A program made the position numbers and the translations under genes. From the sequence record PZ583741.1: a stretch of 64,000 bases of DNA; one strand, given 5' to 3'. Origin of the DNA: a phage. Below, piece after piece: positions 22,340 to 58,642 of the stretch (position 1 is its first letter; the number at the start of each line of letters is the position of its first letter). Under the pieces are notes generated by a model, which saw only the letters and a list, made by a program, of their open reading frames with translations, was not told the DNA's origin and searched no databases.

Positions 22340-22370
22340 AAAGAAGCCCCTCACGGGGCTTTGTTCATTA
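22340..22370 (+). terminator. rho-independent terminator
   Basis: hairpin agcccctcacggggct. Confidence 0.55.
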
Positions 22371-23430
22371 TCTCGCTCATTAATTCAGGTGAGTATTTCA
22401 GCCATTCTGTTGCCCCATCAAAACCCGTCAGTCCTGCGCTTTCATATTTCTTATGGTAATACTTTTCAATGCGCATGGCTTCGGCTCCGGTCGTTTTTAT
22501 TTTATGTATGAGGTTGAAGTCGAATGGTGTTCCTGATTTAAGTTGCGATAATCTTTTTCTGATTTTATTAGTTATTCCAACCTTAATAATTCCATCGGCC
22601 ATCAAGAAATACACATATCCGGTCAATGATGGATTATATCCACCTTTTGCACAAGAAGGGCAGCCACTACCTTTCATATGTGTATTTGGTGATTGCATGA
22701 ATATCCCATGAATAGGGCAAACTATTTTTACCTTACTCATCACATTTCTATAATCAACAAGATGATAGTCATATCTTGAATCGTGAATTTTATTTGACCT
22801 GATGATGAACTCACCTACCTTTAAAGTTCTTCCTTCAACTCTAGACTGAATGCCGCATGACGGACACCCTTTGCCGTTTACATGTGATATGGCTCTCTGA
22901 GTAAATAACCCGTGTATGTTGCATTTAATATTAACATCGGCATCCATGCCATTAAAATTAGCAGCAGAGTAATCATATCTCAATCCATGCCTAGCAACAG
23001 CCCTAGAAATAAAACTATCAATAGAATGCGTTTTCTTTTCGGATATCCTTTTATATCCGCACAATCTACACCCTAAACCTTCAAGGTGTTTATAAGGAAG
23101 CTGTTCGAAATCCCCATGGGTTGCGCATGTTATTGTTATTTTCGTGTGTGAGTTTATATATTCAACTTTAGAATAGTCATAAGAGTCACCATGCTTTGCA
23201 ATCGCATCAGTCACAAACTCACGCGTTGTTTTCCTCTTACCTCCAGAGCATGATTGGCACCCGGCCCCATTCAAATGAGCGTCTGGAGTTTGCTCAAAAT
23301 CACCGTGATAATGGCACGTTATAATTATCTTCATCTTTGAACGGATGTACACTGATTTATCATAAACGTACTTATCGCCATGAACCGATTTAGCTTTGGC
23401 AATGAATTCTTCGGTAGTTAGCTTGCGCAT
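22351..23430 (-). CDS. GIY-YIG (T5orf172-type) nuclease with four N-terminal tandem zinc-binding repeats
   Basis: four ~65-aa repeats of C..HG.F.Q.P..H..G.GC..C; C-terminal GYVYFL...KVGIT GIY-YIG-like domain. Confidence 0.7.
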   Translation of the reverse strand: MRKLTTEEFIAKAKSVHGDKYVYDKSVYIRSKMKIIITCHYHGDFEQTPDAHLNGAGCQSCSGGKRKTTREFVTDAIAKHGDSYDYSKVEYINSHTKITITCATHGDFEQLPYKHLEGLGCRLCGYKRISEKKTHSIDSFISRAVARHGLRYDYSAANFNGMDADVNIKCNIHGLFTQRAISHVNGKGCPSCGIQSRVEGRTLKVGEFIIRSNKIHDSRYDYHLVDYRNVMSKVKIVCPIHGIFMQSPNTHMKGSGCPSCAKGGYNPSLTGYVYFLMADGIIKVGITNKIRKRLSQLKSGTPFDFNLIHKIKTTGAEAMRIEKYYHKKYESAGLTGFDGATEWLKYSPELMSEIMNKAP

Positions 23431-23564
23431 TTTGAACCCTCGGTTAAAGGTGGTTTGAAGTGATGCAGCAGGCGATAACCAATCGCTTTTCGGACGCCTC
23501 CTAGCTGCACTTATTATTGTACCATCAGCGTGCTAAAATACAACAATACGAGATGGAGACTATC

Positions 23565-27366
<3,802 letters not shown>

Positions 27367-27405
27367 TACAATATACATCAAATTCACAAAGGAGCATTTA
27401 TTATA

Positions 27406-29673
27406 ATGGCTACCACACCAACCAATAAACCAATTCCGTCAGAAGACCCGCGCGACCTGAAGTTTAATGCTGGTAAAATTGACGAAGTTGTCAACTCTGA
27501 CAATCACTACTACACCGATCGCTTTGGTCATCGCCGCTTTACAATTGCAGGATTCCAACACACCGCAGAAGAAGCAATTCGTAACTATGGCTACATCACA
27601 ATGGATAGCTTCGAGGATGGCGCGACGCTGACGTTACCGAATCAGGTTTTGCGCTATGAAGTTACTGGAGAATATTACCGCTGGGATGGTGAATTCCCTA
27701 AAACAGTCGCTTCTGGTTCAGCTCCTGCATCCGCTGGCGGTGTTGGAATTGGGAAATGGCTGAGCGTCGGTGATGCAGTCCTGCGCAGCCAGATTTCAGA
27801 CCCGGATGGTGCGTCCAATTACCCGGAATTGCAGATGGCAAGATGGCGTGATGAGGGTGATGTTCGAGGCTGGGGTGCTAAAGGGGATGGTGTAACGGAT
27901 AGTACGGAGAATATAGCTGCTTCACTAAATTCTCAAAAAGCTGTCGTAGCATCAGACGGTGTATTCTCTAGTTCTGGTATTAATAGTAATTACTGTAACT
28001 TAGACGGTAGAGGCAGTGGTGTACTAAGTCACCGTTCAAGTACAGGTAACTACTTAGTATTTAACAATCTACGCTCAGGTCGCTTAAGTAATATTACGGT
28101 AGAAAGTAATAAGGCGACCGATACCACTCATGGGCAGCAGGTATCTCTTGCTGGTGGCAATGATGTTACTATAAGTGATGTTAATTTCTCAAACGTTAAG
28201 GGCACTGGTTTCAGTTTAATCACATACCCTAATGATGCACCCTCTGATGGGCTTATGATTAAAGGCATTCGAGGTAGCTACTCCGGCTATGCTACTAATA
28301 AGGCGGCTGGATGCATACTTGCTGATTCCTCGGTTAACTCCCTCATAAATAACGTCATTGCTAAGAACTACCCTCAGTTCGGAGCCGTAGAGTTGAAAGG
28401 TACAGCCAGTTACAACATAGTCAGTAATGTTATAGGGACAGATTGCCAGCATGTAACTTACAACGGTACTGAGGGACCAATGGCTCCCTCTAATAACCTT
28501 ATCAATGGGGTAGTGGCTAATAATCCTAAGTATGCAGCGGTTGTTGCAGGCAAAGGTAGTACGAACTTAATATCAGACGTGCTCGTAGATTACTCAACCT
28601 CTGATGCTAGGCAGGCTCATGGTGCTACCGTAGAAGGTTCTGATAACGTCATAAATAATGTGCTTATGTCAGGATGTGATGGTACTAACTCTTTAGGGCA
28701 AACTCAGACTGCTACAATTGCGCGCTTTATAGGTACAGCTAATAACAACTATGCGTCTGTATTTCCTAGCTACAGTGCTACAGGTGTTATTGCTTTCGAA
28801 TCAGGTTCTACCCGTAACTTCGTAGAGGTAAAGCATCCGGGAAGGAGAAACGACCTTCTCAGTAAGGCTGGTACTATTGAAGGTGCAGTTACTATTGACG
28901 GCACTAGTAATAGCAACGTAGTGCACGCTCCTGCATTAGGACAGTACATAGGCAGTATGTCCGGTAGGTTCGAATGGCGGATTAAGTCCATATCACTTCC
29001 GTCAGGCGTTCTTACCTCGGCTGATAAGTACAGAATGCTTGGGGATGGTGATGTGTCATTAGCTGTAGGTGGGGGTACTTCTTCTCAAGTTCGCCTATTT
29101 ACTTCTGATGGTACTTATCGGGCAGTATCACTCACCAAGGGTAACGTGCGTCTTCCTACCAGTAGCACTGGTTATTTGCAGTTAGGTTCTGATGCAATAA
29201 CCCCAGATCGTACTGGTACATACGCATTAGGTTCCGCAAGTCTAGCATGGTCTGGCGGTTTTACTCAATCAGAATTCATTGTTGTCTCAGATGCTAGGGA
29301 TAAAACAGAGCCTCTTATTATCTCAGATGCTTTACTGGATGCTTGGTCTGAAGTTGACTTTGTGCAGTTTCAGTACTTGGACCGAATTGAGGAGAAGGGC
29401 GCAGACTCAGCTAGGTGGCACTTCGGCATCATCGCTCAGCGAGCTAAGGAGGCATTCGAACGTCACGGTATAGATGCACATCGTTATGGCTTCCTGTGCT
29501 TCGACAGTTGGGATGCTGTATACGAGGAAGATGCCAATGGCTCTCGTAAACTGATTACACCAGCAGGTTCCCGCTACGGTATACGTTACGATGAAGTACT
29601 GATATTAGAGGCTGCGTTGATGCGGCGTACTATTAAGCGTATGCAGGAAGCATTAGCTGTTATGTCTAAGTGA
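27406..29673 (+). CDS. tail fibre / tailspike with C-terminal S74 intramolecular chaperone domain
   Basis: SDARDK autoproteolysis motif at codon ~628 (nt 29287); central repetitive beta-helix-like region. Confidence 0.8.
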   Translation: MATTPTNKPIPSEDPRDLKFNAGKIDEVVNSDNHYYTDRFGHRRFTIAGFQHTAEEAIRNYGYITMDSFEDGATLTLPNQVLRYEVTGEYYRWDGEFPKTVASGSAPASAGGVGIGKWLSVGDAVLRSQISDPDGASNYPELQMARWRDEGDVRGWGAKGDGVTDSTENIAASLNSQKAVVASDGVFSSSGINSNYCNLDGRGSGVLSHRSSTGNYLVFNNLRSGRLSNITVESNKATDTTHGQQVSLAGGNDVTISDVNFSNVKGTGFSLITYPNDAPSDGLMIKGIRGSYSGYATNKAAGCILADSSVNSLINNVIAKNYPQFGAVELKGTASYNIVSNVIGTDCQHVTYNGTEGPMAPSNNLINGVVANNPKYAAVVAGKGSTNLISDVLVDYSTSDARQAHGATVEGSDNVINNVLMSGCDGTNSLGQTQTATIARFIGTANNNYASVFPSYSATGVIAFESGSTRNFVEVKHPGRRNDLLSKAGTIEGAVTIDGTSNSNVVHAPALGQYIGSMSGRFEWRIKSISLPSGVLTSADKYRMLGDGDVSLAVGGGTSSQVRLFTSDGTYRAVSLTKGNVRLPTSSTGYLQLGSDAITPDRTGTYALGSASLAWSGGFTQSEFIVVSDARDKTEPLIISDALLDAWSEVDFVQFQYLDRIEEKGADSARWHFGIIAQRAKEAFERHGIDAHRYGFLCFDSWDAVYEEDANGSRKLITPAGSRYGIRYDEVLILEAALMRRTIKRMQEALAVMSK

Positions 29674-29749
29674 GTAATACTAGTACGGTTAGATCAGTAG
29701 AGTTGGTTAACAGTAGCCTACGTACTACCAGGCTATTATTTATCAAGGT

Positions 29750-29782
29750 ATAAAACCCCGCCCAGGCGGGGTTTGTTTTATC
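29750..29782. terminator. bidirectional terminator
   Basis: hairpin aaaccccgcccaggcggggttt. Confidence 0.6.
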
Positions 29783-29783
29783 A

Positions 29784-30293
29784 TCAGAACGGAATGTCGT
29801 CGTCGAAGTCAATCGGCGGCTCATTGCCTCCTTGTGGGCTTTGTTGTTTTTGTGGCTGTTGTTGTTGCGGATTTGTCCCCCATCCACCTTGAGGTTGCTG
29901 TCCTGATTGCTGGCGTGGTTGTTGCTGATCAGAATCATCACGTCTACCACCAAGCATCTGCATAACACCACCCATCTGCGGAATGACAATCTCAGTGGTG
30001 TATTTTTCAACGCCGCTCTGGTCTGTCCATTTGCGAGTGAGTAATTTACCTTCCACGTACACCTGAGAGCCTTTCCGCAGGTATTCACCAGCAACTTCTG
30101 CCAGCTTCCCGAAGATAACCACGCGATGCCATTCAGTTTGCTCTTTCTTTTCACCTGTGGCCTTGTCATTCCACTGTTCTGATGTTGCAACGGAAAGATT
30201 GGCAATTGCAGAACCTGATGCTGAATATCTAATTTCCGGGTCATTACCAACTCGACCAAGGATTATGCACTTATTAATACCAATCGAAGACAT
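29784..30293 (-). CDS. ssb: single-stranded DNA-binding protein
   Basis: OB-fold region, Gln/Gly-rich linker, C-terminal DFDDDIPF tail. Confidence 0.9.
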
Positions 30294-30793
30294 TACTTGA
30301 ATCTCCCGTTTTTATCTCTTAATCTGCCATTATGATTCTCTGTGGCGTGTAATGATGCGTGCTCTGACTTCGTCATAAGCATTAGGTTACTTGGATGGTT
30401 GTTTGTTTTATCATGGTCTATATGATGAACGCATTCATTGTGAAACAACCTCCTCCCAATAATGCCTTCCATAACTACAACATGCTCTCCTCTTCCTTTG
30501 TTTTCACCCATAGTTATCTCGACATAACCGTTCGGTTTTACAGAGCGCCCCTTGCCAACTCCTTTCTTTGATTTTGATATATTTTGCTTCCATTCTTCAG
30601 TAAACTCTCGTTTTTTACCCCTAAGTCCTGAGCCAAGCCTTCCCTCTGCGGCAGCAATTCTTATTGCATCCCCTCTGCTTCTCAATATTCCGGCTTTCTT
30701 AAATCTAAACCTCAATGTTGACATGGCTATTCCTGTTTCATTGGAGATTTGAGGGATGCTCATGCCAGACAAATACATATCAAACTCATTCAT
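30293..30793 (-). CDS. HNH endonuclease
   Basis: [18 protein letters not shown] motif; GGAGG RBS before ATG at 30793. Confidence 0.75.
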
Positions 30794-30873
30794 ATGCACC
30801 TCCTTGTGCAATATAGTAATTTACAACCATCAAGTCAACTTTTAATTACTTTATTTACGCCGCGTGCCATTTA

Positions 30874-46222: not shown

Positions 46223-47461
<1,239 letters not shown>

Positions 47462-47516
47462 GTTATCTTACAAGGCATCTCGTGGGGTGCCTCAGTAAGA
47501 CAACCGGAGATAGAGC

Positions 47517-47702
47517 ATGAAAACCAAAATGATTCACAAGTCAGAAGTAAAAATTGGCGACACGGTAATTCACTGCGGTGAGATGAAGACGGTTGGCATG
47601 GAAACATTTGGCAAGGATGAGTTTATGGGACTCCTACTGTGGGGTGATAGCTATCGCTGCGGCTACAAGATGGTTGAGGTTGTAACTGAGGTTAAGTTTT
47701 GA
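47517..47702 (+). CDS. hypothetical early protein
   Basis: 61 aa, GGAGA RBS. Confidence 0.5.
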   Translation: MKTKMIHKSEVKIGDTVIHCGEMKTVGMETFGKDEFMGLLLWGDSYRCGYKMVEVVTEVKF

Positions 47703-47746
47703 ATAGCACGAATTGCTAAACCTTCCGCAAGGCCGTTTGATATAGT
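47703..47746 (+). promoter_or_regulatory. B-module promoter cassette 1: ATAGCACGAATTGCTAAA - N20 - TATAGT
   Basis: palindrome TAGCA-N5-TGCTA; -10 hexamer 38 bp after motif start. Confidence 0.5.
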
Positions 47747-47966
47747 GGTCTTGTTGAAGCAAAACAATCAATCATGGGGTTACACAAATGCAAGTTTATA
47801 AATCACCTGGCGGCGCTCGTTACGTTGTTGTTGATGGCATGGTGTACTGCAAGCCGCTAACCGGATTCACATTTCGCTCGTCAATGACGGTGGATCGATA
47901 CCTTTAGTTGATAGGTTGGGGATTTCTTAGGTTTGAAAAGGTAATCAAGCCTATAATGACCGTCAA

Positions 47967-48010
47967 ATAGCACGAATTGTTAAAATGGGATTCATCCTGA
48001 ATGGTATGAT
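47967..48010 (+). promoter_or_regulatory. B-module promoter cassette 2 (variant TTGTTA; -10 TATGAT)
   Basis: same 38-bp spacing. Confidence 0.4.
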
Positions 48011-48162
48011 CCACACATCAACCACAAGAATGGAAGTTAAGTGACGATATACGAACATAAATTCAGCAGTATGGGTATTGATATGCTCCTGCACTATGTA
48101 GACGAAAAATACGCAAATCTCATGCTTAATACGCATGGCGGCACAATAACGAGGATTGAGAT

Positions 48163-48426
48163 ATGAGTAAGTACAACCGTGAGATTATCGGCCTGGATGG
48201 GGAAGTAACCACAGTGGATGTATATCGAGTCCTGGATGCATTCCAGGTAACAGACCAAGCTATACAGCACGCAATCAAGAAGATGCTGTGCACTGGACTT
48301 AGAGGGCATAAGGACTATCTTACTGACATTGAAGACTCCATTGAATCACTGCAAAAAGCCAAGGAACTTTACGATCAGCGCAAGAGTTACGAGCGGCGAT
48401 ACAATTTATCTTTTACAGATAAATAG
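48163..48426 (+). CDS. hypothetical early protein
   Basis: 87 aa, GAGGA RBS; stop TAG lies inside next motif. Confidence 0.5.
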   Translation: MSKYNREIIGLDGEVTTVDVYRVLDAFQVTDQAIQHAIKKMLCTGLRGHKDYLTDIEDSIESLQKAKELYDQRKSYERRYNLSFTDK

Positions 48427-48466
48427 CACGAATTGCTAAACCCGCTCAGAAGGGTTTTGTTATAGT
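48423..48466 (+). promoter_or_regulatory. B-module promoter cassette 3
   Basis: motif plus TGtTATAGT extended -10. Confidence 0.5.
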
Positions 48467-48495
48467 TAGTTCACACCAAACGAGAGGAAATAAAG

Positions 48496-48714
48496 ATGAT
48501 TACTATTAACCTGTCAGATAAACAAGCAGCAGAACTCAAGTCCATGCTTTCAATCTTTGAGAAGCCAAATGACCAGGTAATTGCCAAAGAGGTAGTGGCT
48601 CAGATTAACAACCAGCAATTCGACGTAAGTGACTTCGAGTCATCGCGCCAGTACGAGGCAATGAGTGTTAATGCTGCATACCTGACTAACTGGGATAATG
48701 CGACTAAGAAATGA
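48496..48714 (+). CDS. hypothetical early protein
   Basis: 72 aa, GAGAGGAAA RBS. Confidence 0.5.
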   Translation: MITINLSDKQAAELKSMLSIFEKPNDQVIAKEVVAQINNQQFDVSDFESSRQYEAMSVNAAYLTNWDNATKK

Positions 48715-48860
48715 TTTTATACATACATGAGTACTGGACGGGGAAGTTTAACACAGTTCGACATGTCCGTGTTTACGAAGATTATGTAAATGCATTCAAT
48801 CAGCAGAAGGTTCTTGGTGGCACCATCAAGGTTTGCGATGTTGTGGATGAGATTTACTAA
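48711..48860 (+). CDS. small hypothetical protein (49 aa)
   Basis: manual ORF, ATGA overlap. Confidence 0.35.
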   Translation: MILYIHEYWTGKFNTVRHVRVYEDYVNAFNQQKVLGGTIKVCDVVDEIY

Positions 48861-48904
48861 ATAGCACGAATTGCTAAAGCAGTCTTGGGGTAATTTGTTA
48901 TAGT
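48861..48904 (+). promoter_or_regulatory. B-module promoter cassette 4
   Basis: motif plus TGtTATAGT. Confidence 0.5.
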
Positions 48905-48934
48905 TACCACATCAAAACTAACGAGGTTATAAGA

Positions 48935-49039
48935 ATGAGTGAATTAATTAAAACTATCGCGGACTATCCATTTGCTTCGCTTTTTCTTGCTATTGCAATA
49001 TATGAAATTGTAAAGATTATTGTCAAATGTATTAAATAG
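48935..49039 (+). CDS. small membrane peptide (34 aa)
   Basis: manual ORF, GAGG RBS. Confidence 0.3.
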   Translation: MSELIKTIADYPFASLFLAIAIYEIVKIIVKCIK

Positions 49040-49079
49040 CACGAATTTCTAAAACATTATCGGGGTATCTTACTATAGT
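49036..49079 (+). promoter_or_regulatory. B-module promoter cassette 5 (variant TTTCTA)
   Basis: motif plus TATAGT at fixed spacing. Confidence 0.45.
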
Positions 49080-49109
49080 TACCCCATCAAAACGAAACAG
49101 GAAGCAGAA

Positions 49110-49289
49110 ATGAAATTTCAACAAGGCGAGCCAAAGCTACAAGTCAACCACTTCGATGGTTACGCAACATTCATCATAGCCCAGGCTTGCGGGATGCGAG
49201 ATGAACCTCACGTTCACACCATTCACTTAACAGAAGAACAGGCACGAGAACTGGCTTACGAAATTCTTGAGCAATTGAACCGAATTTAA
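49110..49289 (+). CDS. hypothetical protein (59 aa)
   Basis: GGAAG RBS. Confidence 0.4.
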   Translation: MKFQQGEPKLQVNHFDGYATFIIAQACGMRDEPHVHTIHLTEEQARELAYEILEQLNRI

Positions 49290-49338
49290 CGCGCATAAAA
49301 CGCATTCTAACGAACGATAATTTAAGTAAGGCGATTCT

Positions 49339-49497
49339 ATGATTAAGGTTGTTTTTATTGCTGATGATGGTGTTTATCCATTATTATCTAATGGTGATGT
49401 TATTTACGTGCAAGACATGGGTTGCGCATATATCTATACAGATGAGTTTGGTGACTCTTATTATATTGAGAAATGGGAAGTTGAGGAGATTGCATGA
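49339..49497 (+). CDS. small protein, paralog 1 (52 aa)
   Basis: MIKVVFIADDG...; similar to next ORF. Confidence 0.4.
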   Translation: MIKVVFIADDGVYPLLSNGDVIYVQDMGCAYIYTDEFGDSYYIEKWEVEEIA

Positions 49498-49655
49498 TTA
49501 AGCTTGTTTATGTGGGTGAGAGTGATTATGTGGCGCTCATTCAGAGTGGTGATGTGTTCTTCGCAGAGATGAGTGATGATGGTAGTTTCTACATCGTAAA
49601 GAACAAGAATGGCGAAGATATCTACCTTTCAAAAGATGAGGTCATCATTTACTAA
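49494..49655 (+). CDS. small protein, paralog 2 (53 aa)
   Basis: MIKLVYVGESD...; tandem duplicate. Confidence 0.4.
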   Translation: MIKLVYVGESDYVALIQSGDVFFAEMSDDGSFYIVKNKNGEDIYLSKDEVIIY

Positions 49656-49780
49656 TGGATAACTACGAATCACCAGTAGAGTGGTGTAAGCGAATGCAGG
49701 ACGAAGCTAAAACTGGTGAAGAGGCGATGGCTTACTACGAACTGGCGCAAATTTGGATGGAACGTGAGAAGAAAGAATGA
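49655..49780 (+). CDS. small hypothetical protein (41 aa)
   Basis: manual ORF with overlapping start/stop. Confidence 0.3.
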   Translation: MDNYESPVEWCKRMQDEAKTGEEAMAYYELAQIWMEREKKE

Positions 49781-49920
49781 GCTTCACTGAATACGTTATC
49801 GCATGCGAGAGACTGGTCTTTGACATGAAGACTTTTCACTGGTTCATCATCAAGGATTTAATTAAGCCTTACAAGCAAGGCGTTACGCCAGAGGCTTTTG
49901 TTAAGTCATTCTACAAATAG
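49777..49920 (+). CDS. small hypothetical protein (47 aa)
   Basis: manual ORF; stop TAG inside next motif. Confidence 0.35.
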   Translation: MSFTEYVIACERLVFDMKTFHWFIIKDLIKPYKQGVTPEAFVKSFYK

Positions 49921-49960
49921 CACGAATTGCTAAACGCAGTCGCCATGGATGGCATATAAT
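49917..49960 (+). promoter_or_regulatory. B-module promoter cassette 6 (-10 TATAAT)
   Basis: motif plus consensus -10 at fixed spacing. Confidence 0.5.
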
Positions 49961-49993
49961 TACCACATCAACACAACGAAGAGAGATATAATA

Positions 49994-50140
49994 ATGAAAA
50001 ATGTATTTGGCATCAGCTATGAAGAAGAGTTTGTTGATTGCCTTATTTACCTGAATGAGATCTACGGAGATGAGTTTGAATGTGATGGTGATTCACTTCA
50101 TGCAAAAATAGAACTTGAAACATTTGGGGAGGTTGTCTAA
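49994..50140 (+). CDS. hypothetical protein (48 aa)
   Basis: ATG at 49994 in ORF 49949..50140. Confidence 0.4.
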   Translation: MKNVFGISYEEEFVDCLIYLNEIYGDEFECDGDSLHAKIELETFGEVV

Positions 50141-50382
50141 TGATGTTTGGATTATCAGAAGCACACTTCAACGCAGTTAAACGCCAGGCAGCAAAGTTGA
50201 ACGAAGAGTACAGCAAGTTATCGCCAAAACAGCGCAAGGACGATAAGCAGGTTGCGGCATTGATTTCAAAGATGTGGGAGCCAGTTTTCACAATCATTAG
50301 TCGAGACCGCTTTGTTTGGACCAGTGGGTATCTTAAGGGTAGAGTAGGTCACGACGAGAATGGGAATAGTCTTTATGAGTAA
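50140..50382 (+). CDS. hypothetical protein
   Basis: 80 aa, GGGAGG RBS. Confidence 0.5.
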   Translation: MMFGLSEAHFNAVKRQAAKLNEEYSKLSPKQRKDDKQVAALISKMWEPVFTIISRDRFVWTSGYLKGRVGHDENGNSLYE

Positions 50383-50557
50383 TTGCAATAAGCATAGGTA
50401 TAAGTACGCTTTCAGTTCAAAACTTACAGCCCACGACATAAAACTACTTAATCTAGGTTACTTCAAATCCAGCAAAAATGAAAATCATGTCGGGGATTAT
50501 AGATCATTTTATGAGTGCGTTAATTGCGGCGAGATGATTGCGATGGGGGTATTATGA
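50360..50557 (+). CDS. hypothetical protein (zinc-finger-like)
   Basis: 65-aa ORF; start uncertain (50360 or 50375). Confidence 0.35.
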   Translation: MGIVFMSNCNKHRYKYAFSSKLTAHDIKLLNLGYFKSSKNENHVGDYRSFYECVNCGEMIAMGVL

Positions 50558-50640
50558 GTGAGTTAACAATCTGGTTTATCGCAGGTCTGATTACTTGGGC
50601 TTACTTTTTAATCGTTTAGATTGAGCTTGTTAAAAAGAGC

Positions 50641-50669
50641 TTGCATCACTGACAGGAATTATCTAATAT
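50641..50669 (+). promoter_or_regulatory. sigma70-like promoter (TTGCAT - 17 bp - TAATAT) upstream of tRNA
   Basis: hexamers and spacing read from sequence. Confidence 0.4.
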
Positions 50670-50838
50670 TAACCACGTAGACAAACGAGGCCACCAGGTG
50701 GCAACGGCGCACGGAGCGCACTACACGGCAAGTCCGTAGCTCATTAAGTAGCGTATGCGGCATTAAGACCTAGCGCAAATAGGCAGATTAATCGGCTGTA
50801 TCAGGCAGCCCCGGAGCCGTAACCGGGACTCATTCAAA

Positions 50839-50916
50839 GCTCTGCTAGCTCAATTGGACAGAAGCAACGACCTTCTAAGTCGCAGGTTACTGGTTCGAAT
50901 CCAGTGCGGAGCGCCA
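50839..50916 (+). tRNA. tRNA-Arg (anticodon UCU), CCA encoded
   Basis: 7-bp acceptor stem, GG in D-loop, anticodon loop CUUCUAA, T-loop TTCGAAT, 3' GCCA. Confidence 0.75.
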
Positions 50917-50931
50917 ATAAAGGAGTTCATT

Positions 50932-51114
50932 ATGTGGGATGTGAAGTTGTCAATTCGCTTAATGGGCCGCTCGTGCAAGAATTGCACTCAAGAATACATC
51001 GCGTCAGTTGCCGCAATCAGCGCTGAGGATGCGGTAGCGAAAGTAAAGGAGATGTCAGGCGCTGACCCTGACACCCACAAATTCCTGGTAGCTTACGTTC
51101 GTGAGCAAAAGTAA
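50932..51114 (+). CDS. hypothetical protein (60 aa)
   Basis: AAGGAG RBS; track ORF 50854 overlaps the tRNA so start moved. Confidence 0.45.
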   Translation: MWDVKLSIRLMGRSCKNCTQEYIASVAAISAEDAVAKVKEMSGADPDTHKFLVAYVREQK

Positions 51115-51154
51115 AAAGTGTTATACCCTCGTTAAGTTTCGTTTCTCTCGTTGT

Positions 51155-51184
51155 TTTTAGCCCTCGCTTGAGGGCTTTTTTTCG
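51155..51184 (+). terminator. rho-independent terminator
   Basis: hairpin agccctcgcttgagggct plus T6. Confidence 0.6.
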
Positions 51185-51225
51185 TCTGCAATATGCTATA
51201 ATCTGGAATCAACAAAGGAGGATTT

Positions 51226-51732
51226 ATGAGCAAAGCAGCATTAAAGATGGGTGAGGGAAATTTCAAGGCGCTCTACAACAAGAAGTATGGCGACATTGCT
51301 ATGGTGGCAATCAACCGCAAGTACACGCCTGAGGAAGTTTTCGATTTCGCCGTTAGATACTTCTCCTGGGCTGAGAGCGAGGCAATTAAGGCTATTGAGA
51401 CGGCTGCTTTCCAGGGTGTGGTTAGCGAGAGCCTCGTACACAAGCCTAGAGTATTCACCTTAACTGGGCTGGCGCTCTTTATGGGTGTCAATATCAATAG
51501 ATTCGCTCGCTGGCGTACTGAGGCTGGATACTCTGATGTGATGGAATTCATTGATAACGTTATTTACGAGCAGAAGTACCAGCTTGGTGTCGCAGGCATC
51601 ATCAACTCTACCATCGTTGGTAAAGAGCTAGGAATTGATAAGCCGCAGGAGATTAAGATTAGCAACAACTCCACAGCTAACGATGTTGACAGTATGAAGG
51701 AAGCACTTGAGTCCGTGATCAGTAAGCTATAG
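51226..51732 (+). CDS. terminase small subunit
   Basis: 168 aa, HTH-like TLTGLALFMGVNINRFARW; AAGGAGG RBS; upstream of large terminase. Confidence 0.6.
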   Translation: MSKAALKMGEGNFKALYNKKYGDIAMVAINRKYTPEEVFDFAVRYFSWAESEAIKAIETAAFQGVVSESLVHKPRVFTLTGLALFMGVNINRFARWRTEAGYSDVMEFIDNVIYEQKYQLGVAGIINSTIVGKELGIDKPQEIKISNNSTANDVDSMKEALESVISKL

Positions 51733-51800
51733 CACTTATTGTTAAAAGAATGGGCCCAATCAATGAGATAATTGGGTCACTAACTTAACGAGGTGATGAT

Positions 51801-52313
51801 ATGAATTGGCATGATTATTTTGAATACAAAGATGGGAAGATTTACTGGAAAGATTACGATAGCGAGAAGCTTGGAAGGAGAAGGATACAGCGAAGATTCA
51901 TAGGGAAAGAGGTTGGCGGCATTGATAAAAGCCTAGGGTATGTTAGGGTAAACATGCCTGGTAAAAAATATTGGGTTCATAGAATAATCTGGGAAATGCA
52001 TAACGGAGCAATACCAGAAGGTATGCAAATTGACCATATAAATCATGTTAGAAATGATAACAGGATAGAAAACATTAGGTTAGTTACAATTCAGGAAAAT
52101 AGAAAGAATCAGTCAATAAATTCTAGGAATAAGACCGGGGTTACCGGAGTCTGCATAGTATCTAGGACTGGCAAGTATGTAGCTCAAATAAAAAAGGATG
52201 GAGAGAATATTCACTTGGGATTCTTTGATAATATTCACGACGCATCGATTGTCAGGGCGAGGGCTGAATTTATTCTTGGGTATCATAAAAACCACGGGAG
52301 GAAAGATGAGTGA
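51801..52313 (+). CDS. HNH homing endonuclease with AP2 domain, between terminase subunits
   Basis: HRIIWEMHNGAIPEGMQIDHINH...DNRIENIRLV; C-terminal GYHKNHG. Confidence 0.85.
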   Translation: MNWHDYFEYKDGKIYWKDYDSEKLGRRRIQRRFIGKEVGGIDKSLGYVRVNMPGKKYWVHRIIWEMHNGAIPEGMQIDHINHVRNDNRIENIRLVTIQENRKNQSINSRNKTGVTGVCIVSRTGKYVAQIKKDGENIHLGFFDNIHDASIVRARAEFILGYHKNHGRKDE

Positions 52314-53877
52314 TTTGATAGTTTGGGATGAGTTAAATCATGCGCAGAAGATGGCTATCAAGGCCATCTCTGAGCATAGTTTCGAGGGGTTCTTGCGGTG
52401 TTTCTTCCAGATAACTCAGGGCGAGAGATTCAAAATGAATTGGCATGCGAAGTACCTTTGCCGCGTCATTGATGAGATTCTTGAGGGTAAGAGAAAGGAT
52501 ACCATCATAAACGTATCTCCGGGATCTGCCAAAACCGAACTGTTTAGCATCCACTTCCCTGTATATAGCATGATTAAGATTAAGAAGGTTAGGAATCTTA
52601 GTTTGTCGTTCTCTGACTCATTGGTTAAGCGCAACTCCAAGCGCGTAAGGGATTTGATAAAATCAAAGGAGTTCCAGGAGCTTTGGCCCTGCACCTTTGG
52701 AACGTGCAGGGATGACGAGATTCAGGTTCTTGATGAGAATGGCAAAGTTAGGTTTGAGTCTATATCTAAGGCGATGGCTGGTCAGGTGACAGGAAGCAGG
52801 GGCGGCTACATGACTGACGATTATAGTGGTTGCATAATGCTGGATGACCCACTAAAGCCTGATGACGCGTTAAGTAATGTAAGAAGAGAGGCTGTCAATA
52901 TGCTTCTCAAGAACACAATCCGTTCACGTCGAGCTAGCTCAGTAAAGGGAAAAGAAACGCCAATACTTTCCGTGCAGCAAAGACTTCATGTTCTGGACAC
53001 TAGCCACTTCATGGAGTCAGGGCAAATGGGCATAAAGTTCGACGTAGTGAAAGTTCCAGCCATAGTCACAGAGGATTACGCCGACACGCTTCCTGATTGG
53101 ATCAAACAACAATTTATTGATGATGTTCTTTCATCACCATTTGTAGAGCGGGATGGAGTTAAGTATTACAGCTACTTTCCGGCAAAGGAGTCAATAGAAG
53201 ACCTGATGGCTATGTGGGATGCTGACCCGTACACGTTCCTTAGTCAGTACCAGCAGGAACCTGTAGCTCTGGGCGGCAATCTTATTAATGTGGATTGGTT
53301 CCAGCGCCTTAGTGATACATTCATACCTCCAGCCAAGTATGATTATCGATTCATCACATGCGATACCGCGATGACCACTAAAAGTTACAGCGACTTCTCT
53401 GTTCTTCAGTTGTGGGGCTATAAAGATGCTAAGATTTACCTTATTGATCAGCGCAGGGGTAAATGGGAGGCCCCAGAGTTGGAGGCTGAACTTCTGGACT
53501 TTGAGAAGAAATCAAGGGCAACCAGTCAGTCAGATGGTATCCTCAGAAAGATTATTATCGAGAAGAAAGCGTCTGGTATCGGCCTGATTCAATCAGCTGG
53601 CAGGGTTATGCGAACACCGATAGAGCCATACGTACCGGATAATGACAAGCTAACCAGGGTGATGAGTGCACTACCACAGATTAAGGCTGGTAACGTAGTT
53701 CTTCCAGAGTCATCGCCGTGGCTAAACGGATTGCTCACTGAGGTTGCGGCTTTTACGGCAGATGACTCGCATAAGCACGACGACCAAATTGACTGTCTAA
53801 CAATGGCGGTAAACCTTGTACTTAACATCGCTGATGATCCTAAGGCGAGACTGATGCGCATAGCGGGAATGAAATAG
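52306..53877 (+). CDS. terminase large subunit
   Basis: Walker A-like VSPGSAKTE; C-terminal nuclease Asp residues; overlaps HNH stop by 8 nt. Confidence 0.8.
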   Translation: MSDLIVWDELNHAQKMAIKAISEHSFEGFLRCFFQITQGERFKMNWHAKYLCRVIDEILEGKRKDTIINVSPGSAKTELFSIHFPVYSMIKIKKVRNLSLSFSDSLVKRNSKRVRDLIKSKEFQELWPCTFGTCRDDEIQVLDENGKVRFESISKAMAGQVTGSRGGYMTDDYSGCIMLDDPLKPDDALSNVRREAVNMLLKNTIRSRRASSVKGKETPILSVQQRLHVLDTSHFMESGQMGIKFDVVKVPAIVTEDYADTLPDWIKQQFIDDVLSSPFVERDGVKYYSYFPAKESIEDLMAMWDADPYTFLSQYQQEPVALGGNLINVDWFQRLSDTFIPPAKYDYRFITCDTAMTTKSYSDFSVLQLWGYKDAKIYLIDQRRGKWEAPELEAELLDFEKKSRATSQSDGILRKIIIEKKASGIGLIQSAGRVMRTPIEPYVPDNDKLTRVMSALPQIKAGNVVLPESSPWLNGLLTEVAAFTADDSHKHDDQIDCLTMAVNLVLNIADDPKARLMRIAGMK

Positions 53878-53917
53878 CACAAATTGCTAAACACTAAAGC
53901 CACGGATGGCGTATAGT
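53874..53917 (+). promoter_or_regulatory. B-module promoter cassette 7 (variant ATAGCACAAATTGCTAAA)
   Basis: terminase stop TAG is inside motif; TATAGT at fixed spacing. Confidence 0.45.
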
Positions 53918-53946
53918 TACTTCACACAAAAGAGAGGAGAAGAAAG

Positions 53947-54279
53947 ATGAAGGCAGTATTTAAAGGTTATAAAAAAGCTGGTCGTTTGGAATTTACTATT
54001 GGTAAGATTTATGAGTTATCAGAAACACGCGGAGTGGGTGGATATATGGTGGTGACTGATGACGGTGGCTTTCGGGCAATATTTATCCCAGACAACATCT
54101 ATGATTTCGAGGTGTTGATCCCAGATGAATTTATCGGTAAAGAAAAGCAATTCAAATATTACATCAATGGCGAAGCTGTTTCTAAAGTCAAGTTCGATGA
54201 TACACTGTTATGCGTCAAGGAATTTAAATCTGATGGCATTGATACATCATCAATCAAGTTCGAAGTAAAATTCGAGTAA
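53947..54279 (+). CDS. hypothetical protein
   Basis: 110 aa, GAGAGGAG RBS, own promoter and terminator. Confidence 0.5.
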   Translation: MKAVFKGYKKAGRLEFTIGKIYELSETRGVGGYMVVTDDGGFRAIFIPDNIYDFEVLIPDEFIGKEKQFKYYINGEAVSKVKFDDTLLCVKEFKSDGIDTSSIKFEVKFE

Positions 54280-54298
54280 CCACAAAAGCTATGATAAA

Positions 54299-54325
54299 CT
54301 AGCCCCTAAATGGGGCTTTTTTATT
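54299..54325 (+). terminator. rho-independent terminator
   Basis: hairpin agcccctaaatggggct plus T6. Confidence 0.6.
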
Positions 54326-54335
54326 GGAGAAAAAC

Positions 54336-55562
54336 ATGGTCAAGACAGACAGCTACGCCAATATCTTTCTAGGCGGCAGTGATGGTAGTGAGATTTACGG
54401 GAGCTTGCAGAACCAAGCGCCTACAATTCTGGCTTCGCTTTATGCGGATAATGCACTGGTGCGTCGAATTATCGACACAATCCCGGAGACGGCATTAGCG
54501 GCAGGATTCCACATTGACGGCATTGATGACGAGCCTGCATTCTGGTCTCGCTGGGACTATCTGGAGTTGACAAGGCACATCAACGAAGCGTGGTCGTGGG
54601 CTAGATTGTTCGGTGGAGCGGCAATTGTCGCTATCGTTAAGGACAACAGAGCTCTAACAAGCCCAGTCAGAGAAGGTTCTGAGCTTGAAACTGTTCGCGT
54701 ATACGACCGCACACAAGTAAAAGTCCAAACTCGAGAGGAGAATCCGCGCAACGCACGTTTTGGTAATCCACTAACCTATCGCATCACCACTAATGAGAGC
54801 GATATGTTTTACGATGTGCATTACAGCCGCATTCATATCATCGACGGAGAGCGAATCCCTAACGTAATGCGTCGGCAAAATGATGGCTGGGGCCGCAGCG
54901 TTCTCTCCAGTGATATTCTTGACTCAATCAAGGATTACACCAACTGCGAACGACTAGCGACTCAACTGCTCAAGCGTAAACAGCAAGCGGTCTGGAAAGT
55001 CAAGGACCTGGCATTGCTTTGTGATGATAGTGAAGGAGTTGGCGCGGCTCGTTTACGTCTCGCTCAAGTTGATAACAACAGCGGAGTTGGTCAGGCAATT
55101 GGCATTGATGCGGAATCGGAAGAATACAGCATTCTGAACTCTGATATTGGTGGGATTGATGCGTTCCTGGATAAGAAGTTCGACAGAATCGTTGCTCTGA
55201 GCGGCATCCATGAAATAATCCTGAAGAACAAGAACGTCGGCGGCTTATCATCAAGCCAGAATACAGCGCTTGAGACATTCCATAAGCTAGTCGATCGAAA
55301 GCGTAACGCTGAACTGCTGCCGATTCTCGGGTTCCTGATTCCGTTCATTTCAGACGAGCAAGAATGGTCAGTGGAGTTTAATCCTCTGGCTCAGGAATCA
55401 AGTAAAGATAAAGCGGAGACCCTTGAGAAGAACGTAAACAGTATAGCAACACTAATTGCAGCTGGCGCTATGGATACTAGCGAAGCGCGTGATACACTAC
55501 GAACTATCGCGCCAGAGATTAAGATTGGCGATGGCAATATCGAACCTAAAGAACCAGTCTAG
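54336..55562 (+). CDS. putative portal protein
   Basis: 408 aa; between large terminase and scaffold. Confidence 0.5.
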   Translation: MVKTDSYANIFLGGSDGSEIYGSLQNQAPTILASLYADNALVRRIIDTIPETALAAGFHIDGIDDEPAFWSRWDYLELTRHINEAWSWARLFGGAAIVAIVKDNRALTSPVREGSELETVRVYDRTQVKVQTREENPRNARFGNPLTYRITTNESDMFYDVHYSRIHIIDGERIPNVMRRQNDGWGRSVLSSDILDSIKDYTNCERLATQLLKRKQQAVWKVKDLALLCDDSEGVGAARLRLAQVDNNSGVGQAIGIDAESEEYSILNSDIGGIDAFLDKKFDRIVALSGIHEIILKNKNVGGLSSSQNTALETFHKLVDRKRNAELLPILGFLIPFISDEQEWSVEFNPLAQESSKDKAETLEKNVNSIATLIAAGAMDTSEARDTLRTIAPEIKIGDGNIEPKEPV

Positions 55563-55631
55563 GAAGCAATGGCGACGACAGAGGAACCTAATGAATGATG
55601 AATTTGATGGCTTTTAGTGAGGAGAATTGGG

Positions 55632-56717
55632 ATGTCTAAAGCCCGCTATGACAGTGTAAAGTTTAAAGCAACAATCGACGAGAATGGATTCTTAGTTGAC
55701 ACTCCGGTAGTCGCTCGTCTCGGCGTGCAAGTCTACTACATGGAAGATGGTCGAACGGTTCGAGAGTTTCGCCCGGCAGAGGAGGTTTTCAATGATGAAT
55801 CTCTGGCAAGCTACCAGGGTAAGCCAATGACTCTTGATCATGTTTTCGTTAACTCAGAGAACGCTAAAGAGGTAGTAGTCGGCTCAGTTGCTGGAAAGGC
55901 AGAGCCATTAGGCAGCTCCGTGGTTGCTCCAATTGTTATTTACGATAATGCCGCCATTCAGGAAGCTATGTCAGGTAACGCAAAGGAGTTATCCGTTGGA
56001 TACTCATCAGTCATTGATTACACCCCAGGTTGGGGTGACCCTGTTACTGGTGAGTACTTCCTTAAGTCTGAAAGTGAGCTATTCGACGTACCAGAAGGAT
56101 GGCAGGAGTTCGACGCAATTCAGCGTGACATTAAAGTGAACCATCTCGCAATGGTATATCGCGGTCGCGCAGGTATTGCCAAATTGAATATGGACGGTGA
56201 GCAGGAAAACCCGTATACTACTGACGTTGATATCAATAAAGAGGATAAACAGGAAATGATTAAGATTAAACTAGACGGCGCGCAGGAATTCGAAGTCGCC
56301 CCAGAAATCGCTTCTCACATCGAAGCGCTGAACGCAAAGGCTGACACTGCAATCGCAGAGCGCGACTCGCTGAAAGCTAAGGTAGATGCAATTCCAGCTG
56401 AAATCGAGAAAGCAGTAGCTAAAGCTAAAGCTGATGCCGATGCCCTAGCCGCTCTGGTTGCTGTTGCTGCTGAAGCTGGTGTTAAGGCTGACGGCCTGGA
56501 TGCTAAAGGCATTAAAGTTGCTTACGTTAAAGAAGTCTCCAGTCTTGATGTTTCCGAGAAGTCTGACGCTTACATCGACGCAGCGTTCGACATTGCCAAA
56601 GAATCTGATAAAATGGCTGAAGTACGTAAAGCGACTACCGCTTCCGACAAATCTGACAGCGCCGAAGAGCCTAAGAAATTAGACCCGCGTGCTCGTTTAG
56701 CTAAAATTAAGAAATAA
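55632..56717 (+). CDS. putative scaffolding protein / prohead protease
   Basis: GAGGAG RBS; Ala/Lys/Glu-rich coiled-coil C-terminus. Confidence 0.55.
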   Translation: MSKARYDSVKFKATIDENGFLVDTPVVARLGVQVYYMEDGRTVREFRPAEEVFNDESLASYQGKPMTLDHVFVNSENAKEVVVGSVAGKAEPLGSSVVAPIVIYDNAAIQEAMSGNAKELSVGYSSVIDYTPGWGDPVTGEYFLKSESELFDVPEGWQEFDAIQRDIKVNHLAMVYRGRAGIAKLNMDGEQENPYTTDVDINKEDKQEMIKIKLDGAQEFEVAPEIASHIEALNAKADTAIAERDSLKAKVDAIPAEIEKAVAKAKADADALAALVAVAAEAGVKADGLDAKGIKVAYVKEVSSLDVSEKSDAYIDAAFDIAKESDKMAEVRKATTASDKSDSAEEPKKLDPRARLAKIKK

Positions 56718-56729
56718 GGAGTTATAAAC

Positions 56730-57239
56730 ATGGCAATTCGTTCCGTAGCACTGGCTGGTATGGTTTCTGATACCTCTCTGTATAACATCGACGGCGCTTG
56801 CGTAGTTGGCGGCAGCGATGCAATTCCGGTTGGTACTGTTGTTGGTGTAACAGCCGCTCAGCCTATAGATGGTCACAAAGTTGTTGGCCTTCCAGCTGTA
56901 ACTGGCACGGCAGTTAAACCTTATGGTGTTGTTGTTAAATCTCATTACGAGACTCCAGATGGCACAGCTCGCGTAAATGAAGCAGTTAACGTAATGACTC
57001 ATGGTCGCATCTGGGTTCGCACCACTTTAGCAGCCGCGCCAGTTTTTGGTAGCAAGGTTTTCGTAAACGCAAGTGGTGTAGTTGTTGCTGAAGCGGCTAC
57101 TACTACTTGGGAAACTGGTTTTACATTTGCTGGCGGTTACATCGCAAACACTGGCACAGACCCACAAAACCTGAGCGTTGATGGTGCCCTAGTTGAGGTT
57201 CAGCTTATCCAATCCACGGACTCAACCGTTGCAGCATAA
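56730..57239 (+). CDS. putative head decoration protein
   Basis: 169 aa between scaffold and major capsid genes. Confidence 0.45.
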   Translation: MAIRSVALAGMVSDTSLYNIDGACVVGGSDAIPVGTVVGVTAAQPIDGHKVVGLPAVTGTAVKPYGVVVKSHYETPDGTARVNEAVNVMTHGRIWVRTTLAAAPVFGSKVFVNASGVVVAEAATTTWETGFTFAGGYIANTGTDPQNLSVDGALVEVQLIQSTDSTVAA

Positions 57240-57253
57240 TAGTTAAGACTAAA

Positions 57254-57280
57254 CTAACCCGCTTCGGCGGGTTTTTTATT
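57254..57280 (+). terminator. rho-independent terminator (UUCG loop)
   Basis: aacccgcttcggcgggtt plus T6. Confidence 0.6.
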
Positions 57281-57362
57281 GCCTATCATCTCATCATTGC
57301 GTGGTCTAAAAACTCGTGTATAATGAACACGTAGACACCTAACTGAAAAGGAACAATAAAGA

Positions 57363-58304: not shown

Positions 58305-58307
58305 TAA

Positions 58308-58333
58308 ATGGCCCTCTTCGGAGGGCTTTTTTA
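58308..58333 (+). terminator. rho-independent terminator (UUCG loop)
   Basis: gccctcttcggagggc plus T6. Confidence 0.6.
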
Positions 58334-58396
58334 CGTCTGTACCAAATGGAATTGTTGGGTTATAATCACTCAATCAGATAAACAAAGGAGACAAAA

Positions 58397-58642
58397 ATGA
58401 TTCGTTTAGAACACACTGGCGCTTGCCTTATCGTTTACAGTGGCGAGAAATATCTACCTGGTGACACTTTCGAGGTTGATGTAATTTGCGACGGACTAAA
58501 GCGTTTAATCGCAGAGGGCAAACTCACCATTGATGGTGATGCCAAAGCAACCAAACAGATTGCGCAGGAAGTTGTTAGCAAGAAAAAGCGCAAGGAACCG
58601 AAAACCATCTCCGAAGCTGAGACTGGCAACGAGTACAAATAA
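58397..58642 (+). CDS. hypothetical structural protein
   Basis: 81 aa, AAGGAG RBS. Confidence 0.45.
   Translation: MIRLEHTGACLIVYSGEKYLPGDTFEVDVICDGLKRLIAEGKLTIDGDAKATKQIAQEVVSKKKRKEPKTISEAETGNEYK

Follow-up and report, generated by a model that had tools for sequence, protein, structure and literature searches.

What does the large gene at 27406..29673 contribute to the phage that carries it, which bacterial surface would its product act on, and how did it come to sit at the tip of a siphovirus tail? The window, that is, the whole 64,000-nt stretch of DNA that we analyzed, consists of two unrelated phage sequences joined together, and the backbone around this gene is that of a 47.3-kb Skatevirus-like siphovirus with best matches to ASO78B, ZCEC08, Bas77/80/81, and VSt472. 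Assignment of the backbone to Guernseyvirinae/Kagunavirus was considered and rejected because these best matches form a Skatevirus-like cluster. The open reading frame is as an earlier note on this DNA had described it, a single frame of 755 aa with an ATG start, but that note called the product a tail fiber and tailspike is the more accurate word. The frame also matches phrog_14895, 'tail spike protein', with 1275 bits. With a probability of about 0.88, we read the locus as encoding a four-module, receptor-destroying K5 lyase tailspike of a Skatevirus-like siphovirus that has a self-shedding chaperone and a cassette in common with Gamaleyavirus. The features of the gene are as follows:

27388..27394, plus strand: ribosome-binding site AAAGGAG, read from the sequence, with its GGAG core at 27391-27394, 11 nt before the ATG.
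27406..29673, plus strand: complete gene for the tailspike pre-protein (755 aa, 80.7 kDa), from the ORF list, with ATG start and with its stop codon at 29671-29673.
27406..27582, plus strand: N-terminal virion anchor (aa 1-59), from the match to Sf11 gp13, with helices predicted to dock on the adaptor helix of the distal tail protein.
27592..27774, plus strand: Tail_spike_N domain PF18668 (aa 63-123; Pfam 59.1 bits, cut-off 25).
27775..27867, plus strand: neck or linker (aa 124-154), from binned identities on the homologue alignment.
27868..28950, plus strand: predicted right-handed parallel β-helix lyase domain (~aa 155-515, end approximate), from identity to 2x3h, AF2, and Foldseek.
28951..29286, plus strand: predicted C-terminal intertwined trimerization stalk (~aa 516-627), from alignment to the C-terminal part of 2x3h.
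29287..29670, plus strand: C-terminal intramolecular chaperone / Peptidase S74 (aa 628-755, 14.7 kDa), from Pfam, PDB matches, and the Ser628-Lys633 dyad.
29753..29784, plus strand: intrinsic terminator hairpin from the terminator scan (9-bp stem, 6 GC pairs, T-run).

The hairpin lies between the tailspike gene and a convergent SSB gene. A promoter scan around the tailspike gene returned 11 candidates with 10.6 expected, which is chance level, and we therefore make no promoter claim.

The N-terminal module points to attachment on a siphovirus tail. Residues 1-135 match gp13 of the Shigella siphophage Sf11 (9occ_G) with an E-value of 2.9e-68. In Sf11, residues 4-59 of gp13 form a four-helix bundle with the distal tail protein (DTP), and the docking contacts seen by cryo-EM involve R16 and K19 of the spike and E129, E136, E147, and E152 of the DTP (PMC12724387). 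Arg16 and Lys19 are present in all siphoviral versions compared, and the presumptive partners are encoded upstream:

23565..24038, plus strand: distal tail protein with the adaptor helix that would hold the spike, 157 aa from an internal ATG, matching residues 1-155 of Sf11 gp17 (9occ_C; E 8.4e-96).
24880..27366, plus strand: baseplate hub protein 2 / central tail tip, 828 aa, with a full-length match to Sf11 gp14 (9occ_E; 1847 bits).

This DTP keeps E129, E136, and E147 but has Asp in place of E152, and the hub gene lies directly upstream of the tailspike gene. Sf11 thus shares the N-terminal anchor, R16/K19, the partner DTP helix, and the gene order of DTP, hub 1, hub 2, and spike, but its gp13 has 585 aa and carries an Sf6/P22-like O-antigen endorhamnosidase body without an S74 chaperone. 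Because the DTP has 157 aa here and 457 aa in Sf11, the full attachment geometry may differ between the two phages. Neither the siphovirus anchor nor the mosaic origin of the gene figured in the earlier note. Beyond the anchor, the Tail_spike_N stretch matches PDB entries 4oj5, 5w6h, 6nw9, and 4qnl and belongs to a domain common to spikes of the CBA120 TSP and G7C gp66 type. Within the neck that follows, residues 136-154 keep 79-95% identity even in homologues with a lyase domain that is only ~50% identical.

The core of the protein is probably a K5 (heparosan) capsular polysaccharide lyase of the KflA family, with specificity and chemistry judged from its 91% identity to the characterized enzyme. 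Residues 155-628 match the crystallized KflA of coliphage K5A (PDB 2x3h), with 90.9% of 474 aa identical (E 1.6e-276), and residues 61-755 match an 843-aa tail spike of solved structure (PDB 9vvr) with E = 0 and ~90% identity, both well outside what chance could produce; our literature search found no paper describing the latter structure. Single-sequence AlphaFold gave a pLDDT of only 33, and the AF2 model was built instead on a 29-sequence alignment. In this model of the monomer, pLDDT is ~90 over residues 150-470, which form the β-helix, and confidence is low over residues 517-634, as would be expected for an inter-chain fold modeled as a monomer. Foldseek places 2x3h first among matches to the model (E 2.4e-51, TM 0.73), followed by CBA120 tailspikes, the chaperones 3gw6, 3gud, and 4uw8, and generic right-handed β-helix enzymes. 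The β-helix fold, which the earlier note had named beforehand as a test of its reading, is therefore predicted, with 2x3h itself as the closest structure. KflA continues after its central helix as a triple-stranded β-helix or β-prism (PMC8822698), and the 2x3h chain stops at the position that aligns with Ser628.

The same note had described a central repeat rich in Ser, Thr, Gly, and Asn, from which it suggested a protein acting on capsule or O-antigen. The composition agrees, since residues 155-627 contain 12.9% S, 12.3% G, 8.5% N, and 8.2% T, or ~42% combined, with ~28% in the N-terminal 154 aa and ~15% in the chaperone. No tandem repeats were found at the DNA level within the tailspike gene, so the word repeat is valid only structurally, for the rungs of the β-helix. 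The proposal of a depolymerase stands for a capsule-type enzyme, a K5 lyase of the KflA family, and not for an O-antigen enzyme.

Could the 9% divergence from KflA have redirected this fold to another capsule or O-antigen, or have left a protein that binds without cleaving? Of the 474 aa aligned to 2x3h, 43 are substituted, which might in principle alter the fine specificity, and the tolerance of the fold for divergence is evident from homologues of ~50% identity, such as prophage proteins of 820 aa in E. coli. However, the substitutions are clustered at residues 155-182, the N-terminal edge of the domain, and in the C-terminal stalk. We take the proposed catalytic residues of KflA to be Phe202, Glu206, Lys208, Tyr229, and Arg279, a list that reportedly goes back to Thompson et al. 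2010. With an offset of +123 from KflA numbering, these positions and KflA 282 correspond to Phe325, Glu329, Lys331, Tyr352, Arg402, and His405, so that all five proposed residue types are present, and the 43 substitutions leave all six positions untouched. Across 18 homologues, down to ~50% identity, four of the five (F325, E329, K331, and Y352) as well as H405 are invariant; R402 varies within the family, which leaves some room for a change of function. The closest relatives, at ~96% DNA identity, are annotated as K5 lyase and come from phages isolated on UPEC. We therefore regard a different target or a non-cleaving protein as unlikely, and a K5 lyase as the preferred reading of the core.

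The enzyme itself is already well known, and the novelty of the locus does not lie in it. KflA (K5A / K1-5, Vectrevirus) has the same β-helix, C-terminal stalk, S74 chaperone, and SDAR-K cleavage motif. However, KflA is a 632-aa protein with a short, adapter-binding podovirus N terminus, whereas the protein studied here has in that place a siphovirus anchor of 154 aa plus a Tail_spike_N domain, and homology to KflA begins only at ~aa 155-166 of its 755 residues.

At the C terminus, the SDARDK motif occurs once in the 755-aa protein, at residues 628-633, so that the segment from Ser628 to the end comprises exactly 128 aa. Placement of this motif and an S74 chaperone in the last ~128 aa, as proposed from the DNA originally, is borne out by a Pfam match to Peptidase_S74 (PF13884) at residues 628-688 (50.2 bits, cut-off 22), by sequence and fold matches in the PDB to 3gud, 3gw6, and 4uw8, and by the invariance of S628 and K633, with their Ser-x4-Lys spacing, across an alignment of 29 homologues with identities as low as 33%. 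The K1F endosialidase and T5 pb1 (3gw6, 4uw8; MEROPS S74) share the chaperone fold and the dyad, but their mature domains are unrelated to the present lyase. The scissile bond in S74 proteins lies N-terminal to the Ser (T5 pb1 paper), and the family mechanism suggests putative self-cleavage at Val627-Ser628, for which the computed masses are 66.0 and 14.7 kDa from the 80.7-kDa precursor. In T5 pb1, an arginine from the neighboring subunit (Arg1250) acts as folding sensor and contributes the oxyanion hole. No equivalent of this T5/K1F 'sensor' arginine was located by sequence. Leu613, where KflA and 9vvr have Arg, was considered as a lost sensor and rejected, because the column holds R, L, Q, N, K, Y, or F across homologues.

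The DNA offers an answer to how a podovirus-type lyase could come to be joined to a siphovirus anchor. Most of the gene belongs to a segment with a different nearest relative from that of the backbone:

27752..29779, plus strand: exchanged cassette from codon 116 to the stop, with the 3'UTR and terminator, from blastn (2,029 bp).

Over these 2,029 bp, the cassette is 95.8% identical by blastn to the K5 lyase locus of Gamaleyavirus UE-S5b. Homology of the backbone to ASO78B ends at 27776 and restarts at 29752, and the cassette edges overlap this backbone homology by 25-28 nt. From these alignments, the cassette appears to join the siphovirus anchor within a conserved coding segment, 'GKWLSVGDA', and at the terminator hairpin, which doubles as its 3' edge. 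At the DNA level, the cassette comes closest to the K5 lyase of UE-S5b / UE-M6 (Gamaleyavirus, Schitoviridae, 784 aa), but the N-terminal 115 aa of that lyase differ from those of the present protein (15-54% identity), its virion is that of an N4-like podovirus, and an endosialidase gene adjoins the lyase gene of UE-S5b. Similarly, 9vvr, from a T7-like Kayfunavirus, shares Tail_spike_N, lyase, and chaperone over residues 61-755, but has a Phage_T7_tail (PF03906) N terminus and is only 46-55% identical over residues 61-115. In the record collection that we searched, the phages specific for K5 are podoviruses (Vectrevirus, Kayfunavirus, Gamaleyavirus).

Such a junction could also arise in silico if an assembler fused a siphovirus contig to a podovirus K5-lyase contig at shared sequence. 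The window itself joins two unrelated phage sequences, the junction lies within a short sequence common to both lineages, and the full-length chimera is absent from all deposited phage genomes searched. However, the reading frame is unbroken across both cassette junctions, and assemblies from metagenomes and SRA contain copies of 755 aa. The 755/756-aa architecture recurs, with 93-98% identity, in at least seven independent public sequences, among them HGT7578226.1 on a 48.3-kb contig, the MAG protein UWI41127.1, and Logan/ENA contigs of 23-48 kb. In the assemblies examined, the gene lies downstream of the same TMP-DTP-hub tail module. Because independent assemblies carry the 755/756-aa versions after the same siphoviral module, we consider the chimera real and an assembly artifact highly improbable. 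As a prophage gene, the tailspike had no match among 5,426 complete E. coli genomes.

There is a negligible chance that the protein is an endosialidase-type (K1) or O-antigen tailspike. In favor of that reading, relatives of ~91% backbone identity have genes for an endosialidase or for O-antigen spikes in this position (vB_Eco_ZCEC08, a close one, has an endo-N-acetylneuraminidase at the tailspike locus), and the chaperone domain was first described in endosialidases. However, the 755-aa protein has no Pfam match to PF12217, PF12218, PF12219, or PF12195, the endosialidase domains that 983-aa relatives with the same N terminus contain, and the alignment of its catalytic core with the K5 lyase runs from one end to the other. 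The earlier label 'endosialidase-type' thus holds for the C-terminal chaperone and fails for the core.

With the K5 lyase tailspike as the preferred reading, a working model can be proposed. During assembly, the last 128 residues would template the intertwined trimeric stalk (~516-627), after which the Ser628/Lys633 dyad would cut the Val627-Ser628 bond to release the 14.7-kDa fragment from the 66-kDa mature chain. In the trimer, the helices of residues 1-59 would wrap the DTP adaptor helix and, by homology and analogy with Sf11, six spike trimers (18 chains) could be fixed around the tail tip, with the Tail_spike_N domain and conserved neck next along the chain (63-154). The lyase domain would cut the heparosan polymer by β-elimination, allowing the virion to tunnel through to the outer membrane; adsorption would then be completed there by the hub or central fiber. 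Codons 116-755, the 3'UTR, and the terminator make up the cassette that N4-like Gamaleyavirus podoviruses also have, at ~96% identity.

Part of the value of this analysis lies in annotation, because copies in public databases go by the names 'tail fiber domain-containing protein' or 'pectate lyase superfamily protein', and part in providing a clean example of modular exchange. Because its boundaries are mapped to the nucleotide, the gene is a natural template for depolymerase swaps onto tails of the Sf11/Skatevirus type. K5 (heparosan) capsules, which mimic a host glycan, are carried by uropathogenic E. coli as well as by the probiotic Nissle 1917, and a siphovirus with a K5 lyase would widen the set of chassis for K5-targeted phage therapy or diagnostics. 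Binding or trimming of host mucosal glycans has reportedly been described for KflA and is said to have been suggested for phage ES17; it is conceivable here because heparan sulfate is built on heparosan as its unsulfated backbone. We tentatively suggest, as a possibility that we do not hold to be the likelier case, that these phages represent an undescribed lineage of K5-capsule-specific siphoviruses that might also bind or trim such glycans, and that gained their spike by cassette exchange with N4-like podoviruses, with the 25-nt 'GKWLSVGDA' segment and the terminator hairpin acting as portable crossover sites. If this is true, these crossover sites would let one depolymerase move between podovirus and siphovirus tails.

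The tailspike gene is a single uninterrupted reading frame with a ribosome-binding site and a terminator, and two domains of the encoded pre-protein exceed the curated Pfam thresholds:

27406..29673, + strand: spike ORF, ATG start, 755 aa
11 nt 5' of the spike ORF: ribosome-binding site AAAGGAG
29753-29774: strong intrinsic terminator, between the spike ORF and the convergent SSB gene
Spike residues 63-123: Tail_spike_N (PF18668)
Spike residues 628-688: Peptidase_S74 (PF13884)

At the level of sequence, comparison with solved structures is decisive for what this protein is. Residues 1-135 align with tailspike gp13 of the Shigella siphophage Sf11 (9occ_G, E = 2.9e-68), residues 155-628 with KflA, the crystallised K5 (heparosan) lyase of coliphage K5A (PDB 2x3h, E = 1.6e-276), and the last 128 residues with the released chaperones of phi29 gp12 (3gud), K1F endosialidase (3gw6), and T5 pb1 (4uw8). 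Counted residue by residue, the spike is 90.9% identical to 2x3h, with 43 substitutions in 474 positions. The 843-aa tail spike 9vvr aligns without gaps to residues 61-755 (E = 0), and the PHROGs family phrog_14895 ('tail spike protein') spans residues 121-755 end to end (1275 bits). These comparisons support the assignment of the spike as a KflA-family K5 lyase with an S74 intramolecular chaperone on a Skatevirus/Sf11-type siphovirus anchor. The S74 chaperone tailspike with a depolymerase core proposed in the earlier note is thereby supported and sharpened to a KflA-family K5 capsular polysaccharide lyase. The gene itself is as that note described it, with SDARDK occurring once in the protein (residues 628-633) and exactly 128 aa from Ser628 to the C terminus. 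The core is indeed rich in Ser, Gly, Asn, and Thr (~42% of residues 155-627, versus 28% in the N terminus and 15% in the C-terminal domain). No DNA tandem repeat was found in the spike gene, so the 'repeat' ascribed to the core holds only as the structural periodicity of a beta-helix.

AlphaFold run on the single spike sequence gave an unusable model (pLDDT 33), and a monomer model was built with a 29-sequence alignment. In this model residues 150-470 have a pLDDT of ~90, a regular pattern of short strands forms a parallel beta-helix, and the C-terminal alpha/beta chaperone is modelled confidently. Residues 517-634 are poorly modelled, as expected for a monomer because the stalk folds only as an intertwined trimer. 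A Foldseek search of the PDB with the model returned 2x3h as the top match (E 2.4e-51, target TM 0.73), followed by the CBA120 tailspikes TSP1, TSP3, and TSP4 and the chaperone structures 3gw6, 3gud, and 4uw8; generic right-handed beta-helix enzymes (AlgE4 epimerase, the HK620 and Sf6 tailspikes, polygalacturonases) were also among the matches. The proposed fold check therefore returned a beta-helix, bearing out that part of the earlier reading.

The 632-aa KflA-type proteins align to the spike with an offset of 123 residues. In 2010 Thompson et al. reportedly proposed Phe202, Glu206, Lys208, Tyr229, and Arg279 as the catalytic residues of KflA. At their counterparts in the spike, positions 325, 329, 331, 352, and 402, all five residue types are present, and none of the 43 substitutions relative to 2x3h falls on these positions. 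In an 18-sequence alignment extending down to ~50% identity, F325, E329, K331, Y352, and H405 are invariant and R402 varies (R/K/S/T). The chaperone dyad, S628 and K633, is retained without exception across 29 sequences, down to 33% identity. In the T5 pb1 structure the scissile bond precedes the catalytic serine, which in T5 and K1F departs with the released chaperone (PMC4690869); cleavage at the same place would give predicted spike products of residues 1-627 (66.0 kDa) and 628-755 (14.7 kDa). Leu613, an arginine in KflA, was considered as a loss of the folding-sensor arginine and rejected, since this column is variable in the family and the substitution does not remove the sensor arginine; a sequence comparison yielded no other position that could be assigned as its equivalent.

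The partners needed to mount the spike on a siphovirus tail are encoded nearby:

23565..24038: homologue of the distal tail protein (DTP), matching Sf11 gp17 residues 1-155, E 8.4e-96
24880..27366: 828-aa hub protein, directly 5' of the spike gene, full-length match to Sf11 gp14

Between them lie genes for a 156-aa protein and an NlpC/P60 protein. By cryo-EM, the Sf11 virion carries six tailspike trimers, each held by a four-helix bundle of three gp13 N-terminal helices (residues 4-59) and one adaptor helix of DTP gp17, with salt bridges involving spike Arg16 and Lys19 and DTP Glu129, Glu136, Glu147, and Glu152 (PMC12724387). Both Arg16 and Lys19 are present in the window's spike, and its DTP keeps E129, E136, and E147, with Asp at 152. 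Together with the hub homologue, these residues suggest that docking would work as in Sf11. The DTPs differ in length, at 157 aa in the window (173 aa if counted from an upstream TTG, 23517-24038, + strand) and 457 aa in Sf11, where the gp17 of the cryo-EM model bears a large extra C-terminal appendage that the window's protein lacks. That the latter stops right after the adaptor helix argues that spike docking can do without the appendage in this lineage. Between the tape-measure and DTP genes, and antisense to them, a 359-aa ORF (22351-23430, - strand) contains T5orf172/MUG113 (GIY-YIG-like) and DUF723 zinc-finger-type domains, and probably represents a mobile gene for a nuclease or DNA-binding protein within the tail module; phage vB_EcoS_ASO78B has a shorter hypothetical gene (651 nt) at this position.

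An exact copy of positions 1-127 stands at 47277-47403, so the first 47,276 bp represent one complete, circularly closed phage genome. Its best backbone matches, at 59-73% coverage and 89-91% identity, are vB_EcoS_ASO78B, vB_Eco_ZCEC08, BASEL phages Bas77, Bas80, and Bas81, IME207, and Skatevirus VSt472; Bas77-81 belong to a cluster made up mainly of genus Skatevirus (BASEL paper). Other spikes occupy the locus in these relatives, that of ZCEC08 being an endosialidase. A gene for a 172-aa HNH_3 endonuclease (30293-30811, - strand) separates the SSB and recombinase genes, which are adjacent in ASO78B, and with ASO78B homology broken over 30249-30842 it looks like a homing-endonuclease insertion. 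Positions 47404-64000 belong to a different siphovirus, so the window spans more than one locus. This second segment covers a terminase, portal, capsid, and tape-measure region and shares 95.8% identity with Escherichia phage vB_Ec-G8 and ~90% with SU57 and CEB_EC3a. It holds the sole tRNA of the window, tRNA-Arg(TCT) (50839-50916, + strand); the first genome has none, and the annotation of ASO78B lists both tRNA-Arg(TCT) and tRNA-Ser(GCT).

Homology to ASO78B extends across the hub gene and 371 nt into the spike gene, ends at 27776, and restarts at 29752, and similarity to other siphoviral anchors is likewise lost between gene nt 320 and 374. Similarity to K5 lyase genes sets in at gene nt 261 for Kayfunavirus (92%), nt 347 for Gamaleyavirus UE-S5b and UE-M6 (95.7%), and nt 498 for Vectrevirus (K5A, K1-5, and others; 92-93%). 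Direct comparison with UE-S5b gives a single 2,029-bp block (27752-29779, 95.8%) that continues beyond the stop codon across the 3'UTR and terminator hairpin. The ASO78B and UE-S5b tracts have 25 nt in common at the 5' edge (27752-27776, codons 116-124, GKWLSVGDA) and 28 nt at the 3' edge (29752-29779, the terminator); these shared stretches would be the most likely crossover sites. At the protein level the neck (residues 136-154) is 79-95% identical even where a homologue's lyase domain is ~50% identical, which suggests a second conserved junction. In UE-S5b (locus sequence L005, 1-3114) the gene immediately 5' of the K5 lyase gene encodes an endosialidase, giving a dual K1/K5 arrangement as in phage K1-5.

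The full-length spike gene was found in none of 50,697 phage records (best coverage 89%), the exact protein was not found in a collection of 15 billion sequences, and a search of 5,426 complete E. coli genomes did not find the gene in prophages. Full-length 755/756-aa versions with 93-98% identity do occur in Logan and ENA assemblies, and in the contigs examined the homologue is preceded by the tape-measure, DTP, and hub module seen here, which argues that the chimeric architecture is natural and recurrent. The contig of one 756-aa siphoviral variant (P0002) has an Sf11-like replication module, unlike the window's backbone, placing the K5 cassette on at least two siphovirus backbones. Public copies have so far been neither recognised nor named as K5 lyases: among the NCBI members of the 755-aa-architecture cluster, HGT7578226.1, on a 48.3-kb contig, is a 'tail fiber domain-containing protein' and UWI41127.1 is labelled 'MAG: Pectate lyase superfamily protein'.

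Sequence and structure comparison establishes which modules make up the spike, its fold, the conserved dyad and lyase residues, and the conservation of docking residues and partner proteins. Cassette exchange as a principle is well known, as is each component of the spike; the novelty lies in pairing a K5 lyase with a siphovirus and in the unusually clean edges of the segment that was exchanged. A K5 lyase acting on unsulfated heparan sulfate domains is described in the ES17 paper (PMC7885116), and the window's spike might possibly act on them too. In the mechanism we envisage from the characterised homologues, the chaperone would template trimerisation of the spike, which would cleave itself at Val627-Ser628, and six trimers would be mounted at each tail tip. 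Beta-eliminative breakdown of the K5 heparosan capsule would be the first, host-range-determining step of infection.
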